From a virus (lineage: Duplodnaviria; Heunggongvirae; Uroviricota; Caudoviricetes), in the IMG/VR virus record IMGVR_UViG_2740892212_000008: a DNA stretch of 6,740 nt. One strand, 5' to 3'. The translations under genes and the position numbers were made by a program. The notes beneath the pieces were generated by a model. The model did no database searches. It was not told the origin of the DNA and was given only the letters and a program-made list of their open reading frames with translations. Shown here piece after piece: positions 10 through 6,740 of this stretch; position 1 is the stretch's first letter, and every line of letters starts with the position of its first letter.

Positions 10-663
10 ATGACCACTATTACCAAAGAACGTATTGAATTGTTCATTAAAAATCCGCTTGAAAACGGGCTTACCCGTGGTGAACAAATGGAACTGGCAC
101 GGATTGCGCTGGCATCGCTGGAAGCAGAGCCGGTGGCAAAGATTATAGCTCATTACCCATTAGGAGTTGACGTAGGCAAACAAAAGTTCGTACAGGCCAT
201 TGGAGAGCTTCCTGACTTTGGCGGATATCTATTTGCCGCCCCTCCAGCGCCGATAGTGCCGGAAGAAATGTATTGGCAGGATGCGCCAGTTGAAGGCAGC
301 AGCAAAGCGGCTGCATACGCTACAGGCTGGAACGATTGCCGCGAAGCCATGCTTCAGTCCGGAAACTTTCGGGAAAATAAAGATTCGTCAACCAATAATT
401 TTCGGAAAATCCCGGAAGCGTCAACCAGCTCTCCGGTAACTCCGGCTCTTCTGCCTGGTGGTTTCACCATTGAGGATGCGAAGGATTTACATGAAGACCT
501 GGTGCGCAGCCACATAAGCCAGGCTTTAAGTAGCGAAAAGATGAAAAAGAAAGATCGCGATGCTGATTTGCGTTGGATCCATGGCGTTATAGTTCAGGCA
601 GCGTGGTTTGTGAAAGCATCACTGGAAGCGTTGCCTGAACTGTCGCAGGAGGTGAATCAATGA
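10..663 (+). CDS. hypothetical prophage protein, 217 aa, function unknown
   Basis: Uninterrupted ORF from ATG 10 to TGA 661-663. No protein family recognised by eye. The stop overlaps the ATG of the next small ORF (ATGA). Confidence 0.6.
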   Translation: MTTITKERIELFIKNPLENGLTRGEQMELARIALASLEAEPVAKIIAHYPLGVDVGKQKFVQAIGELPDFGGYLFAAPPAPIVPEEMYWQDAPVEGSSKAAAYATGWNDCREAMLQSGNFRENKDSSTNNFRKIPEASTSSPVTPALLPGGFTIEDAKDLHEDLVRSHISQALSSEKMKKKDRDADLRWIHGVIVQAAWFVKASLEALPELSQEVNQ

Positions 664-743
664 CCTGGCCTGAGGCATTCACAACGGTAGGAATTGCGAT
701 GGCGGTGACGCTGGTGGTGTATTCGATTTGCCGCTGGGGATAA
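660..743 (+). CDS. small hydrophobic peptide, 27 aa (MTWPEAFTTVGIAMAVTLVVYSICRWG), possibly a membrane peptide
   Basis: ATG 660-662 overlaps the upstream stop, suggesting translational coupling. One predicted transmembrane-like segment. Too short for the ORF track; a chance ORF cannot be excluded. Confidence 0.3.
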   Translation: MTWPEAFTTVGIAMAVTLVVYSICRWG

Positions 744-750
744 AAACGGT

Positions 751-778
751 TTGCGGGAAAAGGAGAGTTAAGTAGAAT
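751..778 (+). promoter_or_regulatory. candidate sigma70 promoter for the hok mRNA
   Basis: -35 TTGCGG (751-756), 16-nt spacer, -10 TAGAAT (773-778). Predicted start near 785, about 113 nt upstream of the mok-like start, which fits hok-family mRNA layout. Confidence 0.35.
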
Positions 779-780
779 TG

Positions 781-796
781 CTGCGGGTGCTTGAGG
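781..796 (+). promoter_or_regulatory. 5' tac-like element of hok mRNA, complementary to the 3' element at 1160-1175
   Basis: The reverse complement of 781-796 (CCTCAAGCACCCGCAG) matches 1160-1175 (CCTCAACGCACCCGCA) with a single-nucleotide bulge. This is the 5'/3' fold-back arrangement typical of hok-family mRNAs. Confidence 0.5.
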
Positions 797-839
797 CTAT
801 CTGTCTCAGGCATGAACACCAAAAGGCAGATAGAGAAAA

Positions 840-906
840 GCCCCAGTTAACATTACGCGTCCGGCAAGACGCTTAACATTAATCTGAGGCCATATCTATG
901 CTCTAC
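840..906 (-). ncRNA. putative Sok-like antisense RNA covering the mok translation-initiation region (boundaries approximate)
   Basis: Expected by analogy with hok/sok loci. A weak minus-strand promoter is present (-35 TTGCCT at plus 941-936, 17-nt spacer, -10 TAACCT at plus 918-913). No clean terminator was found, so this is speculative. Confidence 0.2.
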
Positions 907-1110
907 ACACGTAGGTTAGCCTCTTACGTGCCGAAAGGCAAGGAGAAGCAGGCTATGAAGCAGCAAAAGGCGATGCTTATCGCCCTGATCGTCATCTGTT
1001 TAACCGTCATTGTGACGGCACTGGTAACGAGGAAAGACCTCTGCGAGGTACGACTCCGAACCGGCCAGACGGAGGTCGCTGTCTTCACAGCTTACGAACC
1101 TGAGGAGTAA
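898..1110 (+). CDS. mok-like reading frame: in-frame 19-codon N-terminal extension of hok (70 codons)
   Basis: ATG 898 is in frame with hok and shares its stop, as in chromosomal mokC/hokC and mokB/hokB pairs. GAGG lies 10 nt upstream. Confidence 0.4.
   Translation: MLYTRRLASYVPKGKEKQAMKQQKAMLIALIVICLTVIVTALVTRKDLCEVRLRTGQTEVAVFTAYEPEE
955..1110 (+). CDS. hokD: Hok/Gef family type I toxin, 51 aa, HokD/RelF-like
   Basis: Translation MKQQKAMLIALIVICLTVIVTALVTRKDLCEVRLRTGQTEVAVFTAYEPEE is recognised as Hok/Gef family: one transmembrane segment and the conserved RKDLCEV...TGQTEVAVF core. Stop TAA 1108-1110. Confidence 0.9.
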   Translation: MKQQKAMLIALIVICLTVIVTALVTRKDLCEVRLRTGQTEVAVFTAYEPEE

Positions 1111-1159
1111 GAGACCAGGCGAGGGAGAAATCCCTCGCCACCTCTGATGAGTCAGGCAT

Positions 1160-1175
1160 CCTCAACGCACCCGCA
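1160..1175 (+). promoter_or_regulatory. 3' fbi-like element of hok mRNA, partner of 781-796
   Basis: Complementary to 781-796 (see above). Lies between a 9-bp stem/GAAA-loop hairpin (1118-1139) and the terminator. Confidence 0.5.
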
Positions 1176-1178
1176 CTT

Positions 1179-1205
1179 AACCCGCTTCGGCGGGTTTTGT
1201 TTTTT
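1179..1205 (+). terminator. rho-independent terminator at the end of the hok transcript
   Basis: Stem AACCCGC / GCGGGTT with TTCG loop, followed by TTTTGTTTTTT. Confidence 0.65.
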
Positions 1206-1463
1206 CCTGGCATTCTGGTTTACAATTCGCACGTCAGCCTNNNNNNNNNNNNNNNNNNNNNNNNNNNNNNNNNNNNNNNNNNNNNNNNNNNNNNNNNNNN
1301 NNNNNNNNNNNNNNNNNNNNNNNNNNNNNNNNNNNNACGCGGATACGAGATTAAGAAAGCCCTCAGCCTCGATTATCGTCACTGGATAATCTATGTCAGG
1401 CTCCCTTATTCCGAACGCCCACCGCGCCCATCCCGCACATACCAGCAACGGATCTGGAGGTAA
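1197..1463 (+). CDS. possible small ORF in the position of Qin-prophage rem, interrupted by the N run; start undetermined
   Basis: A frame ends at TAA 1461-1463, two nt before the preferred GTG start of the DUF968 gene. Only the last 42 codons are visible after the N run and their composition is not convincingly coding. Confidence 0.2.
   Translation: MFFPGILVYNSHVSXXXXXXXXXXXXXXXXXXXXXXXXXXXXXXXXXRGYEIKKALSLDYRHWIIYVRLPYSERPPRPSRTYQQRIWR
1241..1336. other. run of 96 N: unresolved or masked sequence
   Basis: Directly visible. Any ORF call crossing it is unverifiable. Confidence 0.95.
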
Positions 1464-1464
1464 C

Positions 1465-2514
1465 GTGCGGATATTACTTCGACCTGTTCTGGTACCGGAA
1501 CTCGGGCTTGTGGTCCTTAGGCCGGGCTGTGAATCCATGCAAGTATTTCATAACCCTCGAGTGCTGGTGGAGCCTGAACCGAAAAGCATGCGCGGTCTGC
1601 CGTCCGGAGTCGTCCCTGCCGTTCGCCAGCCGCTGGCGGAGGATAAATCATTACTGCCATTTTTCAGCGATGAGCGTGTGATTCGTGCTGCTGGCGGCGC
1701 TGGCGCACTGTCTGACTGGCTCCTGCGTCATGTTAAATCCTGCCAGTGGCCTCATGGAGACTATCACCACAGTGAAACCGTCATACATCGTTACGGTACC
1801 GGCGCAATGGTGTTGTGCTGGCACTGCGACAACCAGCTGCGCGACCAGACATCCGAATCACTCGGGCAGCTTGCTCAACAAAATCTGACAGCCTGGATGA
1901 TTGACGTCATACGTCACGCAATAAGTGGTGCACAGGAACGGGAATTATCGCTGGCTGAATTATCCTGGTGGGCGCTCTGCAATCAGGTAGCGGACGCACT
2001 ACCGGAGGCAGTATTACATCGTTCTCTGGGGTTACGCGCGGAAAAAATCCACTCAGTATACCGCGAGAGTGACATCATACCGGGAGAACAGACAGCCATC
2101 AGCATACTGAAGCAGCGCACAAAAAATTTTGCGCCGTTGCCTCACGCCCACCAGCAACAGAACCCACCACAGGAAAAGACGGTGGTCAGCATTGCCGTTG
2201 ATCCGGAGTCACCGGAATCATTCATGAAGCGGCCTAAACGTCGCCGCTGGGTGAATGAGAAATACACGCGCTGGGTAAAGACACAGCCGTGTACATGTTG
2301 TGGTAAGCCAGCAGACGATCCCCATCACCTGATTGGTCACGGTCAGGGCGGAATGGGGACAAAATCTCACGATATTTTCACGCTACCGCTGTGTCGGGAG
2401 CATCACAACGAGCTTCATGCGGATCCGCTGGCGTTCGAAGAAAAGCATGGTTCTCAGGTTGATTTAATTTTTCGTTTTCTTGATCACGCCTTTGCAACTG
2501 GCGTGCTTGGGTAA
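1465..2514 (+). CDS. DUF968-family prophage protein with HNH-like Cys/His motif (YdfU-like)
   Basis: C-terminal CTCCGKPADDPHHLIGHGQGG...LCREHHNELH is recognised as the DUF968 / His-Me-finger-like signature. A second Cys/His cluster (CQWPHGDYHH...CWHCDN) lies upstream. Preferred start is GTG 1465, 4 nt after GGAGG (349 aa); the upstream in-frame ATG 1393 (373 aa) is the alternative. Stop TAA 2512-2514. Confidence 0.7.
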   Translation: MRILLRPVLVPELGLVVLRPGCESMQVFHNPRVLVEPEPKSMRGLPSGVVPAVRQPLAEDKSLLPFFSDERVIRAAGGAGALSDWLLRHVKSCQWPHGDYHHSETVIHRYGTGAMVLCWHCDNQLRDQTSESLGQLAQQNLTAWMIDVIRHAISGAQERELSLAELSWWALCNQVADALPEAVLHRSLGLRAEKIHSVYRESDIIPGEQTAISILKQRTKNFAPLPHAHQQQNPPQEKTVVSIAVDPESPESFMKRPKRRRWVNEKYTRWVKTQPCTCCGKPADDPHHLIGHGQGGMGTKSHDIFTLPLCREHHNELHADPLAFEEKHGSQVDLIFRFLDHAFATGVLG

Positions 2515-2526
2515 AAGAGGTGACTG

Positions 2527-2886
2527 ATGCTCATAGATTTGGTTTTACCTTACCCGCCGACGGTGAACACTTACTGGCGACGCCGTGGCAGCACATATTT
2601 TATCTCGGAGGAGGGAAAGCGTTATCGCCGGGCTGTGGCGCTTATTGTTCGCCAGCAGCGGCTGAAATTAAGCCTGTCCGGAACGCTGGCGATAAAGGTG
2701 ATTGCAGAGCCATCGGATAAGCGTCGTCGCGACCTGGACAACATTCTGAAAGCACCGCTGGATGCGCTGACGCATGCGGGAGTGCTCATTGATGACGAGC
2801 AGTTTGATGAAATCAATATTGTACGTGGTCAGCCAGTATCTGGTGGACGGCTGGGTGTGAAGATTTACAAAATTGAGAGTGAGTGA
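2527..2886 (+). CDS. rusA: RusA-family Holliday junction resolvase
   Basis: 119 aa with the RusA hallmarks PYPPTVNTYW...RRRDLDNILKAPLDAL and a C-terminal GGRL segment. Strong SD GAGGTG 4 nt upstream of ATG 2527. Stop TGA 2884-2886. Confidence 0.9.
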   Translation: MLIDLVLPYPPTVNTYWRRRGSTYFISEEGKRYRRAVALIVRQQRLKLSLSGTLAIKVIAEPSDKRRRDLDNILKAPLDALTHAGVLIDDEQFDEINIVRGQPVSGGRLGVKIYKIESE

Positions 2887-2894
2887 GCGTAAAT

Positions 2895-3446
2895 ATGATA
2901 TATCCGGAAATTACAGGCAAAAGCGGCGAACATTTACGCCTGAACACGCTGGAAGCAGTCTGGATCCAGGGGAAATTACGGATGTGGGGGCGGTGGTCGT
3001 ATATCGGTGGGGGTAAATCCGGAAATATGTTTAACCGGTTACTGGTTTCGAAAAAGCTGACGAAAACAGCAGTTAATGAGGTTTTACGCAGAATGAAGAA
3101 ATCCGGGCTGGAAAAACCGGAACTTGAGGCATTTTTTCGGGATATGACAAGAGGAAAGCAGAAGAGCTGGTTGTCACATTGTACAGACACAGAGGCGTTG
3201 ATTATTGATCGCGTTATCAGTGAGGTGCTTGGGGAATATCCCGGGCTAATCAATGTTCTCCGGCAAAGGTACGAAGGACGGGGAATGAGCAAACTGAACA
3301 TGGCCGAAAGGTTAAATGCAGATCATCCTGATTGGTCGTTGGTTACGTGCAGACGCCGAATTGATCAATGGTTGGGGGTATCTGAATTTATGTTATATGC
3401 CCCCATGCGCATGGCTTTTGTTACAGAGAAAAATGTTGCAAACTGA
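2895..3446 (+). CDS. putative late-gene antiterminator Q
   Basis: Position is diagnostic: directly after rusA and directly before terminator structures and late-region cargo. 183 aa from ATG 2895; the in-frame GTG 2883 overlaps the rusA stop as an alternative start. Family assignment is from context and weak recall only. Confidence 0.6.
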   Translation: MIYPEITGKSGEHLRLNTLEAVWIQGKLRMWGRWSYIGGGKSGNMFNRLLVSKKLTKTAVNEVLRRMKKSGLEKPELEAFFRDMTRGKQKSWLSHCTDTEALIIDRVISEVLGEYPGLINVLRQRYEGRGMSKLNMAERLNADHPDWSLVTCRRRIDQWLGVSEFMLYAPMRMAFVTEKNVAN

Positions 3447-4018: not shown

Positions 4019-5068
4019 ATGCTTAATACTGTAAAAATATCCAGTTGTGAGTTAATCAACGCCGACTGCCTGGAATTTATCCGGTCGTTACCCGAAAATT
4101 CTGTTGACCTGATAGTCACGGACCCGCCGTACTTTAAAGTGAAGCCTGAGGGCTGGGATAACCAGTGGAAGGGCGACGATGATTACCTGAAGTGGCTGGA
4201 CCAGTGTCTGGCGCAGTTCTGGCGGGTGCTGAAACCTGCCGGAAGTCTTTACCTGTTCTGTGGTCATCGCCTGGCATCTGATATCGAAATCATGATGCGT
4301 GAACGCTTCAGTGTGCTGAACCATATTATCTGGGCGAAGCCGTCCGGACGCTGGAACGGATGCAACAAGGAAAGCCTGCGGGCGTATTTCCCCGCCACAG
4401 AGCGCATTCTGTTCGCGGAACATTATCAGGGGCCGTATCGCCCGAAAGATGCCGGGTATGAGGCGAAGGGCAGGGAACTGAAACAGCATGTGATGGCCCA
4501 GCTGATTTCTTACTTTCGTGATGCACGCGCGGCCCTGGGGATAACGGCAAAACAGATTGCAGATGCCACAGGAAAGAAAAACATGGTGTCGCACTGGTTC
4601 AGTGCCAGTCAGTGGCAGCTACCGAACGAAAGCGATTATCTGAAATTACAGTCGCTGTTTGCCCGGGTGGCAGAAGAGAAACATCAGCGGGGAGAACTGG
4701 AAAAGTCCCATTACCAACTGGTCAGCACATACAGTGAGCTGAACCGGCAGTATATGGAACTGCTGAGTGAATATAAAAATTTGCGGAGGTATTTCGGTGT
4801 GACGGTGCAGGTGCCGTACACCGATGTGTGGACGTATAAACCGGTGCAGTACTATCCAGGGAAACATCCGTGCGAAAAACCGGCAGAAATGCTGCAGCAG
4901 ATAATCAGCGCAAGTAGTCGTCCTGGTGATCTGGTTGCGGATTTTTTCATGGGGTCGGGTTCAACGGTAAAAGCGGCGATGGCACTGGGGCGTCGTGCGA
5001 TTGGTGTTGAGCTGGAGACCGGACGTTTTGAGCAGACAGTCAGGGAAGTTCAGGATTTAATCGTTTGA
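4019..5068 (+). CDS. DNA methyltransferase, beta-class amino-MTase (probably N6-adenine), orphan
   Basis: 349 aa with catalytic motif IV DPPY near the N-terminus (SVDLIVTDPPYF) and SAM-binding motif I near the C-terminus (DLVADFFMGSGST). This order is the beta-class arrangement. No restriction-endonuclease-like ORF is adjacent. Confidence 0.9.
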   Translation: MLNTVKISSCELINADCLEFIRSLPENSVDLIVTDPPYFKVKPEGWDNQWKGDDDYLKWLDQCLAQFWRVLKPAGSLYLFCGHRLASDIEIMMRERFSVLNHIIWAKPSGRWNGCNKESLRAYFPATERILFAEHYQGPYRPKDAGYEAKGRELKQHVMAQLISYFRDARAALGITAKQIADATGKKNMVSHWFSASQWQLPNESDYLKLQSLFARVAEEKHQRGELEKSHYQLVSTYSELNRQYMELLSEYKNLRRYFGVTVQVPYTDVWTYKPVQYYPGKHPCEKPAEMLQQIISASSRPGDLVADFFMGSGSTVKAAMALGRRAIGVELETGRFEQTVREVQDLIV

Positions 5069-5117
5069 AACGGATGAGATTGCAGTATTAATTCCGTAAC
5101 GTTATTATTCTGCGCGC

Positions 5118-5193
5118 GGCCCTTTAGCTCAGTGGTGAGAGCGAGCGACTCATAATCGCCAGGTCGCTGGTTCAAATCCAGCAAGGGCCACCA
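5118..5193 (+). tRNA. ileZ: tRNA-Ile2 (anticodon CAU, lysidine type), phage-encoded
   Basis: 76 nt with canonical cloverleaf: acceptor GGCCCUU/AAGGGCC, anticodon loop CUCAUAA, T-loop UUCAAAU, 3' ACCA. Very close to E. coli tRNA-Ile2. Confidence 0.85.
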
Positions 5194-5200
5194 TCACATA

Positions 5201-5277
5201 CCGCCATTATCTCATCAGGAAAGAGCGCCAGCCTTCGAAGCTGGTTGCGCGGAGTTCGGGTCCCCGAAGGCGGTCCA
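5201..5277 (+). tRNA. tRNA-Arg-like (anticodon UCG), possibly degenerate (argN position)
   Basis: Anticodon stem-loop CCAGC-CUUCGAA-GCUGG and a D-loop with A14 and GG are present. Acceptor stem has one mismatch, T-stem one mismatch, and T-loop is UUCGGGU (G where A58 is expected). Confidence 0.45.
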
Positions 5278-5290
5278 TTATCTGTATCCT

Positions 5291-5367
5291 GCGTTGTTAG
5301 CTCAGCCGGACAGAGCAATTGCCTTCTAAGCAATCGGTCACTGGTTCGAATCCAGTACAACGCGCCA
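5291..5367 (+). tRNA. argO: tRNA-Arg (anticodon UCU), phage-encoded
   Basis: 77 nt with canonical cloverleaf: acceptor GCGUUGU/ACAACGC, anticodon loop CUUCUAA, T-loop UUCGAAU, 3' GCCA. Confidence 0.85.
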
Positions 5368-5381
5368 CACTTATTTTCCCT

Positions 5382-5407
5382 GGCTCGCTTTTGCGGGCCT
5401 TTTTTTT
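5382..5407 (+). terminator. rho-independent terminator after the tRNA cluster
   Basis: Stem GGCTCGC / GCGGGCC (7 bp, one G-U) with TTTT loop, followed by eight T (5400-5407). Confidence 0.7.
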
Positions 5408-5604
5408 AAATGTCTCACAATTCAGACGGTTGACAGTTGTCTGTTTTGCGGGGAGTTTGTTAAAAGAAACTGGCATGGTGAATCCCCCTGTGCGGAGGGG
5501 CAATCAGCGAGTAGGTATATGGGATAATCGTGGATTCAGGTGCTGGTACTGAATTCACCGGGAGGCACCCGGCACCATGCAATGGCACATAGCGCCACTC
5601 TCCA

Positions 5605-5628
5605 GCCCCTCTCCGGAGGGGCTTTCTT
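5605..5628 (+). terminator. terminator-like hairpin, plus strand
   Basis: Stem GCCCCTC / GAGGGGC with TCCG loop, followed by TTTCTTAT. Confidence 0.4.
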
Positions 5629-5634
5629 ATGGAC

Positions 5635-5663
5635 AAAAAAAGCCCGCGCAGGGAGACGCGGGC
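5635..5663 (-). terminator. rho-independent terminator, minus strand
   Basis: Plus-strand A7 (5635-5641) then stem GCCCGCG / CGCGGGC with 8-nt loop. Read on the minus strand this is a GC stem followed by seven U. Confidence 0.5.
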
Positions 5664-5856: not shown

Positions 5857-6740
5857 ATGGCATTTAAACACTATGATGTTGTCAGGGCGGCGTCGCCGTC
5901 AGACCTTGCGGAAAAGCTGACACACAAACTGAAAGAGGGCTGGCAGCCATACGGCGGACCGGTTGCCATTACGCCGTACACACTGATGCAGGCGGTGGCT
6001 ATTGAAGGAGAGCCACAGGTCGGCCCTTCATCTGAGCCGGATTGGTACTACGTCATCGTACTGGCCGGGCAGTCCAATGCCATGGCTTACGGTGAAGGGC
6101 TTCCGCTGCCGGATTCATACGATGCTCCGGATCCGCGCATTAAACAGCTGGCGCGCCGCAGTACAGTGACGCCGGGCGGGGCTGCCTGCAGATATAACGA
6201 TATTATTCCGGCTGACCACTGTCTGCATGATGTGCAGGATATGAGTACGCTGAATCATCCGAGGGCTGACCTGAGCAAAGGGCAGTACGGCTGTGTCGGT
6301 CAGGGTTTACATATTGCCAAAAAACTGCTCCCGTATATCCCGAATAACGCGGGGATCCTGCTGGTACCATGCTGTCGTGGTGGTTCGGCATTTACCCAGG
6401 GCGCGGAGGGGACATTCAGCGAGTCCACGGGGGCCAGTCAGGATTCGGCACGCTGGGGGGTGGGCAAGCCGTTATATCAGGATCTGATTTCCCGCACAAA
6501 AGCGGCATTGCAGAAAAATCCCAAAAACGTTCTGCTGGCCGTCTGCTGGATGCAGGGTGAGTTTGACATGAGCGCCGCCACCCACGCACAGCAACCTGCG
6601 CTGTTTACAGCCATGCTGACACAGTTTCGTGCTGACCTCTCCGTGTTTAACGCGCAGTGCCATGGTGGCAGTGCTGCAGATGTGCCGTGGGTTTGTGGTG
6701 ACACGACGTATTACTGGAAAAATACATACGCTACCCAGTA
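5857..6740 (+). CDS. nanS: prophage sialate O-acetylesterase (NanS-p type) with N-terminal DUF1737-like region; 3' end beyond the window
   Basis: ATG 5857 with GGGAGG 4 nt upstream. Frame is open to the window end (294 codons, verified by hand; absent from the ORF track because it lacks a stop). Contains the SGNH/SASA nucleophile block VIVLAGQSNAMAYG. Confidence 0.85.
   Translation, partial: MAFKHYDVVRAASPSDLAEKLTHKLKEGWQPYGGPVAITPYTLMQAVAIEGEPQVGPSSEPDWYYVIVLAGQSNAMAYGEGLPLPDSYDAPDPRIKQLARRSTVTPGGAACRYNDIIPADHCLHDVQDMSTLNHPRADLSKGQYGCVGQGLHIAKKLLPYIPNNAGILLVPCCRGGSAFTQGAEGTFSESTGASQDSARWGVGKPLYQDLISRTKAALQKNPKNVLLAVCWMQGEFDMSAATHAQQPALFTAMLTQFRADLSVFNAQCHGGSAADVPWVCGDTTYYWKNTYATQ

Follow-up and report, generated by a model that had tools for sequence, protein, structure and literature searches.

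A tRNA operon with a doubtful middle gene

The 6,740-nt stretch of viral DNA analysed here (IMG/VR record IMGVR_UViG_2740892212_000008, referred to below as the window) carries three tRNA genes side by side, and the question raised by this locus is whether the middle one, argN, still encodes a working tRNA. An earlier note on the same DNA had listed three tRNA genes at 5118-5367, the outer two canonical and the middle one decaying or unusual. ARAGORN places the three genes at exactly the coordinates proposed, and the Rfam tRNA model (RF00005, gathering score 29 bits) scores them at 72.5, 33.8 and 70.1 bits, none of which is a chance match. The first, ileZ (5118..5193, plus strand; E 6.6e-15), is an intact tRNA-Ile2 with an encoded CCA, whose CAU anticodon is read as an AUA decoder after lysidine modification. 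The second, argN (5201..5277, plus strand; E 3.1e-4), is a damaged tRNA-Arg(UCG). The third, argO (5291..5367, plus strand; E 3.2e-14), is an intact tRNA-Arg(UCU), a decoder of AGA and AGG, also with an encoded CCA. The window ileZ is identical to that of phage VT2-Sakai and to 105 of the 118 clusters compared below, and the same gene is called tRNA-Ile by PGAP in three RefSeq genomes. The window argO is the commonest allele (58/118). Both in score and as the prevailing alleles, the outer two genes are canonical, as had been proposed.

The order Ile2(CAU)-Arg(UCG)-Arg(UCU), the short spacers and the presence of a promoter and terminator of its own identify the cluster as the already known ileZ-argN-argO module, which was reportedly named in the Stx2 phages 933W and VT2-Sakai by Plunkett et al. 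in 1999 (J Bacteriol 181:1767). The proposal that this is the arrangement of Stx-type lambdoid phages is borne out both by alignment with VT2-Sakai and by the labels ileZ, argN and argO in several matching Stx phage GenBank records. Judged from its layout, 5080-5407 appears to be a self-contained operon, made up of a promoter, ileZ, argN, argO and an intrinsic terminator. A putative sigma-70 promoter, assigned by homology (5080..5108, plus strand), consists of TTGCAG (5080-5085), a 17-nt spacer and TATTAT (5103-5108), and a G+C-rich stretch lies between it and the first tRNA. It aligns column for column with a 'putative tRNA promoter' annotated in VT2-Sakai (AP000422), where this element is followed in order by three tRNAs, a terminator and stx2A. 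Both hexamers are invariant and the spacer is variable in the three aligned sequences; a simple promoter consensus scan of the window did not call the element (8/12 matches). The primary transcription start of these tRNAs has been mapped experimentally in Sakai only (PMC7547250). By homology with the Sakai annotation and this mapped start, we infer that the element acts as a promoter in the window prophage. The intrinsic terminator found by a terminator scan (5382..5407, plus strand) reads GGCTCGC-TTTT-GCGGGCC followed by T8, with seven pairs, six of them G-C; it is also conserved in VT2-Sakai, whose annotation places a rho-independent terminator there, just ahead of stx2A.

An alignment of the window, VT2-Sakai and the O157:H16 prophage described below has a mean column identity of 95%. 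Gene order, promoter hexamers and terminator are the same in the window and VT2-Sakai, as are the spacers apart from a 2-nt indel after ileZ; ileZ is identical, argO differs by one base, and argN differs at 8 of 77 positions. The surroundings differ: in the window, STnc100 and a NanS-p-like esterase come after the module and stxAB is missing, and ahead of the module lies a DNA methylase gene rather than Q-PR'-tR' directly.

The prophage around the operon

In the lambdoid E. coli prophage to which it belongs, the window represents the late-regulatory region. Its first feature is a hokD-like type I hok/sok toxin-antitoxin module (785-1110), in which a sok RNA (785-960, 117 bits in Rfam) overlaps a 51-aa Hok ORF (955-1110) matching Pfam HOK_GEF. 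This is followed by genes for a DUF968 protein (1393-2514), RusA (2527-2886), a DUF1133 protein (2883-3446) and an N6/N4 DNA methylase (4019-5068), the tRNA genes, STnc100 (5444-5634, 137.7 bits), and a DUF1737-SASA esterase (sialate O-acetylesterase, NanS-p-like; 5857-6740) that runs off the end of the window. In Stx phages a NanS-p-like esterase is the usual first gene past stx. Past the hok module and ahead of the DUF968 gene, 96 positions (1241-1336) are masked as N, and ORFs across this run are meaningless; a weak isrK-like match at 1119-1200 (27.8 bits) is below its gathering score. The DUF1133 protein also passes the Pfam antiterminator-Q model (Phage_antitermQ, 30.5 bits, cut-off 26) and is probably the Q-type antiterminator of the prophage. 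In UTI89, a different 273-aa 'antitermination protein' is found at this position.

The best matches of the window are E. coli prophages, for example that of O157:H16 strain 98-3133, which aligns over 84% of the window at 99.5% identity. Matches to the region number 311 in the phage collection, most of them from Stx2-converting phages. Among GTDB species representatives the tRNA cluster is found only in Escherichia, with the exception of two metagenome bins, one being a 56-kb contig assigned to 'uncultured Collinsella sp.' (L217, UQIB01000015.1) and the other a contig of a 'Proteobacteria bacterium' MAG (L213). Its presence in these two is likely due to binning contamination.

No stx ORF is found in the window. 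Stx-converting phages carry stxAB directly downstream of the tRNAs, and here STnc100 begins 37 nt past the tRNA terminator. In VT2-Sakai, STnc100 comes after stx2B (locus L122, 5073-5332), with the AsxR anti-sRNA beside it on the opposite strand. Thus, positions 5408-5443 of the window mark the place that stxAB takes in Stx phages, and the window has the Stx-phage layout with stxAB absent. STnc100 was also considered as a PR' leader or an equivalent of StxS, and this was rejected because the Sakai copy follows stx2B, not PR' (PMC7547250). Tandem STnc100, in two or three copies, is present at some related loci (L006, L050). Immediately past STnc100, the minus strand has a strong terminator-like hairpin at 5642-5663 (8 pairs, T7), at the site of the AsxR/AgvB anti-sRNAs in EHEC prophages (L122, L025, L218). 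Rfam gives nothing in this part of the window beyond a 22-bit 'anti-hemB' match; the element may be a divergent anti-sRNA.

Structure and lesions of argN

In the Infernal alignment, argN forms a cloverleaf with an intact anticodon arm (CCAGC CUUCGAA GCUGG), comprising a 5-bp stem and a 7-nt loop with U33 and a purine at 37. U8, A14, the G18G19 of the D loop AUCAGGAAA, the G53-C61 pair and CCA at 5275-5277 are also retained, as are A20, C35 and G36. A20, C35 and G36/U36 are known as ArgRS identity nucleotides, and with all three present argN would, on these positions, qualify as a substrate of E. coli ArgRS. With all these parts intact, some charging and decoding may persist.

The remainder of the molecule departs from a normal tRNA. 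Three of the 21 pairs are non-standard, namely A6.A67 (acceptor stem), U10.C25 (D stem) and A52.C62 (T stem), so that three of the four stems lack a full set of standard pairs. The T loop reads UUCGGGU, with G58 (5259) in place of the near-universal A58, and thus breaks the pattern T54-Psi55-C56-R57-A58, in which T54 and A58 form a reverse-Hoogsteen pair; intact argN alleles have UUCGAGU or UUCAAGU. The VT2-Sakai argN is a perfect cloverleaf with the T loop UUCGAGU and scores 54.8 bits in Rfam. The window copy is identical to it at 69 of 77 nt, and four of the eight differences are structural: G10U (5210), G52A (5253), A58G (5259) and U67A (5268). At 33.8 bits it is above the gathering score and far under both its neighbours and intact argN alleles (54.8-58.4 bits). 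The intact UCG anticodon arm, the T loop UUCGGGU and the acceptor and T-stem mismatches had all been noted before and are seen in the Infernal alignment; the list was incomplete in that the fourth lesion, U10.C25 (G10U) in the D stem, had been overlooked. The same check of 5201-5277 neither turned up another alignment in which the gene scores as a normal tRNA nor failed to find a tRNA there. Relative to an intact orthologue these are derived, uncompensated structural losses with observed intermediates, the pattern of a pseudogene. PGAP calls the exact window allele tRNA-Arg, with no pseudogene flag.

A graded series of argN alleles

To place the window allele among its relatives, IMG/VR was scanned with a pattern whose only anchors were the ileZ 3' end and the argO D arm, the middle gene not being used, which together with the window gave 118 analysable clusters. 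Intact or consensus structures are found for ileZ in 115, for argO in 93 and for argN in only 42 of these 118. By its argN, each cluster was assigned to one of several classes. Class A (47 copies, 55-58 bits in Rfam) is canonical in the T arm and in the 3' strand of the acceptor stem, and class A2 (5 copies, 54 bits) differs by A58G only. Class B (27 copies, 43 bits) combines A6.A67, A52.C62 and G58 and includes the window, which adds G10U and thereby drops from 43 to 33.8 bits. In class D (5 copies, 26.4 bits) there are several mismatches. The 30 copies of class C are undetected by Rfam; here the anticodon arm is replaced, the T loop reads GCGGGT and a poly-G run of 5, 6 or 12 is present. Four copies are unclassified. 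A second scan with a shorter gap added class E, 23 copies (L218 and 22 other IMG/VR loci) that have the anticodon arm deleted and are likewise undetected by Rfam. ARAGORN misses the middle gene in 33/118 clusters. While argN scores fall across the classes, ileZ remains steady at 72.5 bits and argO at 66-71. The earlier reading of argN as a decaying tRNA holds up here: the window carries a derived, damaged allele near the bottom of a graded decay series whose intact members score 54.8-58.4 bits.

Among 36 distinct 77-nt argN alleles, no pair is changed on both sides, and 7 of the 21 pairs depart only by unpaired cells. In argO, by contrast, a T-stem variant found in 7 copies elsewhere has compensating changes on both sides. 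In class C loci such as L110, L081 and L055, an unrelated hairpin stands in place of the anticodon arm, and the poly-G run shows slippage. A 7-bp acceptor stem survives in classes C and E despite the lost anticodon arm; in class E, both sides of its pair 7-66 have changed (U-A to C-G), and 2 copies show a C.A intermediate. Other lineages have destroyed argN independently, by replacement (class C) or deletion (class E) of the arm.

The state of argN was also compared with the presence of stx. No stx is found downstream of class B clusters in any of the 81 with enough downstream sequence, and all 9 IMG/VR clusters with stx immediately downstream fall into class A, judged by their T arm and 3' acceptor strand; in one of the nine, however, the D and anticodon arms are frame-shifted. 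With a stricter pattern for the whole gene, in the unbiased first scan, argN is intact in 7/9 stx-linked clusters vs 24/75 others (Fisher p = 0.011). Among 11 stx-linked IMG/VR clusters, one argN is frame-shifted and one has its anticodon switched to UCU, and a fully paired argN cloverleaf is kept in 10. The association of intact argN with stx is a correlation only, confounded by shared ancestry. A Sakai-type argO with G37 for A37 in the anticodon loop (CUUCUGA) is found in 5/12 stx-linked clusters, at L122 (3591-3667) and four other stx2-linked loci, and scores 68.1 bits vs 70.1.

Class B in E. coli genomes

The exact window allele is rare, being found in 2 of 5,426 complete E. coli genomes (O55:H7 RM12579 and O111:H2 12A), and a 97-nt stretch around it is identical in these two independent genomes. 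Class B, which is the window allele without G10U, is present in about 825 of the 5,426 (about 15%, counted as the 825 records in the 95-99% identity band), with UTI89, S88, APEC O1, 042 and 55989 among the carriers. The Sakai-type allele is comparable, with 944 records at an identity of at least 95%. Among 50,697 deposited phage genomes the class B allele is not found, and the top identity to the window allele is 90.9%. In non-Stx lambdoid prophages, such as the one next to ompW in UTI89, the class B argN matches the window gene at 76 of 77 positions and is called tRNA-Arg by PGAP. It shares A6.A67, A52.C62, G58 and the flanking methylase and tRNA genes, and the window differs in adding G10U.

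Within 110 class B copies, further changes in argN are G10U (4 copies, the window counted), G50A (4), CCA to UCA (17), C32U (40) and three singletons, and no pair-restoring change is found among them. Segregating sites number 7 in 55 free argN positions vs 9 substitution sites in 153 positions of ileZ (5) and argO (4); with so few events, their density in argN is not clearly the higher. Additionally, 13 of the 110 copies also have a damaged argO, in which C61A breaks the conserved G53-C61 and C67G breaks the acceptor pair 6-67 in a class B sub-lineage. Decay thus reaches past argN in some class B prophages. Decay of argN as a rule of defective prophages was considered and rejected: the prophage of the O157:H16 strain, 99.5% identical to the window, is pseudogene-rich, but the class B prophage of UTI89 looks largely complete.

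Folding energies

Stepwise mutation of the nearest intact allele gives predicted cloverleaf energies of -31.3 kcal/mol at the start, -31.3 after A58G, -24.4 after G52A, -20.0 after U67A (class B) and -15.7 after G10U (the window allele), against -28 to about -31 kcal/mol for intact argN. From class B onward the predicted minimum-free-energy (MFE) fold is not a cloverleaf: the T-loop UUCGG pairs with CCGAA in a hairpin that gains pairs through two of the derived mutations. For the window allele the MFE is -25.0 kcal/mol, with the cloverleaf about 9 kcal/mol weaker, and the fold is no better than that of its own shuffles (z = -0.27). Selection for the new fold was considered and rejected, because the observed mutations rank 35, 53, 60 and 189 among the 219 single mutants of the intact allele and are not unusual in this respect, and because the MFE weakens at every mutational step. 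On these predictions, decay would explain the argN mutations better than selection for a new structure.

Codon demand

Per 1000 codons, the window ORFs contain 13.6 AUA, 2.4 AGA, 4.8 AGG, 3.2 CGA and 18.4 CGG. The corresponding values, in the same order, are 4-13, 5-8, 4-6, 4-6 and 10-16 for UTI89 prophage genes, 36.6, 14.6, 4.9, 4.9 and 7.3 for stx2AB, and 3.0, 2.0, 0, 3.0 and 4.9 for five flanking host genes. AUA and AGA are abundant in prophage and stx2 genes, and stx2AB is not rich in CGA or CGG. The most likely function of ileZ and argO is to supplement the decoding of AUA and AGA/AGG, codons that are rare in E. coli and enriched in prophage genes. The suggestion that the cluster supplies decoders for rare AUA and AGA codons is thus compatible with the counts; CGA and CGG, the codons of argN, fit less well. 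CGG is nevertheless enriched 2-3 times in prophage genes (10-18 per 1000), so the demand for argN is not nil.

E. coli reads CGA and CGG with ICG and CCG tRNAs of its own. E. coli K-12 is not known to have a tRNA-Arg with a UCG anticodon, and an intact argN would bring an anticodon new to the host. Selection on argN may plausibly have been relaxed because the host ICG and CCG tRNAs already read these codons.

Decay of argN and the alternatives

We consider argN to be a tRNA pseudogene, or a severely crippled tRNA, that descends from a functional tRNA-Arg(UCG) in the operon of a stx-less prophage, and give this reading a probability of about 0.75. It builds on features seen directly: the homology of the gene, the polarity and nature of its lesions, the loss of score and of cloverleaf stability, and the contrast with conserved neighbours. 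A functional tRNA-Arg(UCG) ancestor would have gained four uncompensated lesions at structurally critical positions, probably beginning with A58G, followed by G52A and U67A, and ending with G10U. Four such lesions would leave it a pseudogene or, at most, a badly impaired tRNA. The damaged gene would still be co-transcribed with its neighbours, and it is still annotated as a tRNA. Beyond these structural losses, we infer that argN has lost its decoding function.

It is unlikely, though still worth weighing, that the window argN is instead a working if unusual tRNA-Arg(UCG), which is processed, charged by ArgRS and useful in reading CGA and CGG. Such a tRNA would account for a score above the Rfam threshold, for the ARAGORN and PGAP calls, for the integrity of the anticodon arm, A20, C35, G36 and CCA, for the presence of its parent class B in about 15% of complete E. 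coli genomes and for the enrichment of CGG in prophage genes. However, it has lost A58, G10-C25 and one T-stem pair with no compensation, and the predicted MFE fold, in which the T loop is re-paired, is more stable than its cloverleaf by 9 kcal/mol. Sub-lineages gain damage and none repairs it, the sister classes C and E have plainly lost the gene, and the G10U allele itself is confined to 2/5,426 genomes. Sequencing or assembly error, or a chance tRNA match, is prompted by the low score of the middle gene and by nothing else. An artefact would not recur as an identical 97-nt stretch in two independent complete genomes, nor G10U in 4/110 class B copies (the window counted), and chance would not produce 69/77 nt identity with the VT2-Sakai argN at the same position between the same neighbours; both are ruled out for practical purposes.

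We regard it as improbable that argN no longer decodes but is kept as a processing or spacing signal, an RNase P substrate separating ileZ and argO in the transcript. This would agree with the observation that no IMG/VR cluster fully lacks the middle element (0 at gaps of 1-59 nt between the flanking genes), and with the 7-bp acceptor stem kept in classes C and E, including the compensatory 7-66 change of class E. But the acceptor stem is not generally protected, as class B breaks 6-67 and class D breaks 1-72 and 2-71, and classes B, C and E have a damaged T arm, which together with the acceptor stem makes up the RNase P minihelix. The 7-66 compensation may be older than the class E deletion, and the lack of complete deletions may be due only to recency and to the exact matching demanded by the scan anchors. 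There is a similarly slim chance, more broadly, that argN is not simply dead but a retained tRNA-like RNA, whether an RNase P or processing mark or a low-level or regulatory tRNA-derived RNA. If true, a retained role would explain why outright deletion is never seen and why about 15% of E. coli genomes still carry the gene, and also the compensatory acceptor-stem change in the version without an anticodon. Pseudogenisation remains our preferred reading of the locus.

Relation to known systems

We read the decay of argN as the ordinary pseudogenisation of a phage gene that can be dispensed with, rather than as a new kind of element. The host has rare-codon tRNA genes of its own, ileX/ileY (Ile2, CAU) and argU (Arg, UCU). 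These have the same anticodons as ileZ and argO and presumably the same AUA and AGA/AGG decoding; however, they are single chromosomal genes and not part of a phage operon. Small late-regulatory tRNA clusters, explained by rare-codon supplementation, are also seen in phages SfI, Sf6, ST64T and P21, which carry tRNA-Asn or tRNA-Thr downstream of Q (PMC3636060). They differ from the present cluster in tRNA species and in having no decayed member reported, and no codon bias was found for the SfI tRNA-Asn (PMC3636060).

The Ile-Arg-Arg trio near stx2i is polymorphic, and some strains are annotated there as 'tRNA-pseudo - tRNA-Arg' (PMC13641118). Toxin subtype and alleles differ from those discussed here, and the lesions were not analysed in that report (PMC13641118). 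Polymorphism of the first tRNA-Arg, or 'tRNA-pseudo' variants, are mentioned in passing (PMC2858043; PMC13641118), and a full-text literature search returned only such passing mentions of argN or the trio (PMC2858043, PMC13641118, PMC7547250) and no study of argN function or decay and no systematic decay series.

Implications

In hundreds of E. coli genomes, a structurally crippled argN passes for a normal tRNA-Arg with standard pipelines (ARAGORN, PGAP). As a consequence, counts of phage-supplied tRNAs, and the CGA/CGG decoding capacity inferred from them, are overstated. For the phages themselves, a cluster in which ileZ is near-invariant, argO mostly intact and argN repeatedly destroyed amounts to a natural experiment. 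It suggests that the supply of AUA and AGA/AGG decoders matters to these phages, and that they can do without the UCG tRNA, except in a subset to which the stx-linked clusters belong.
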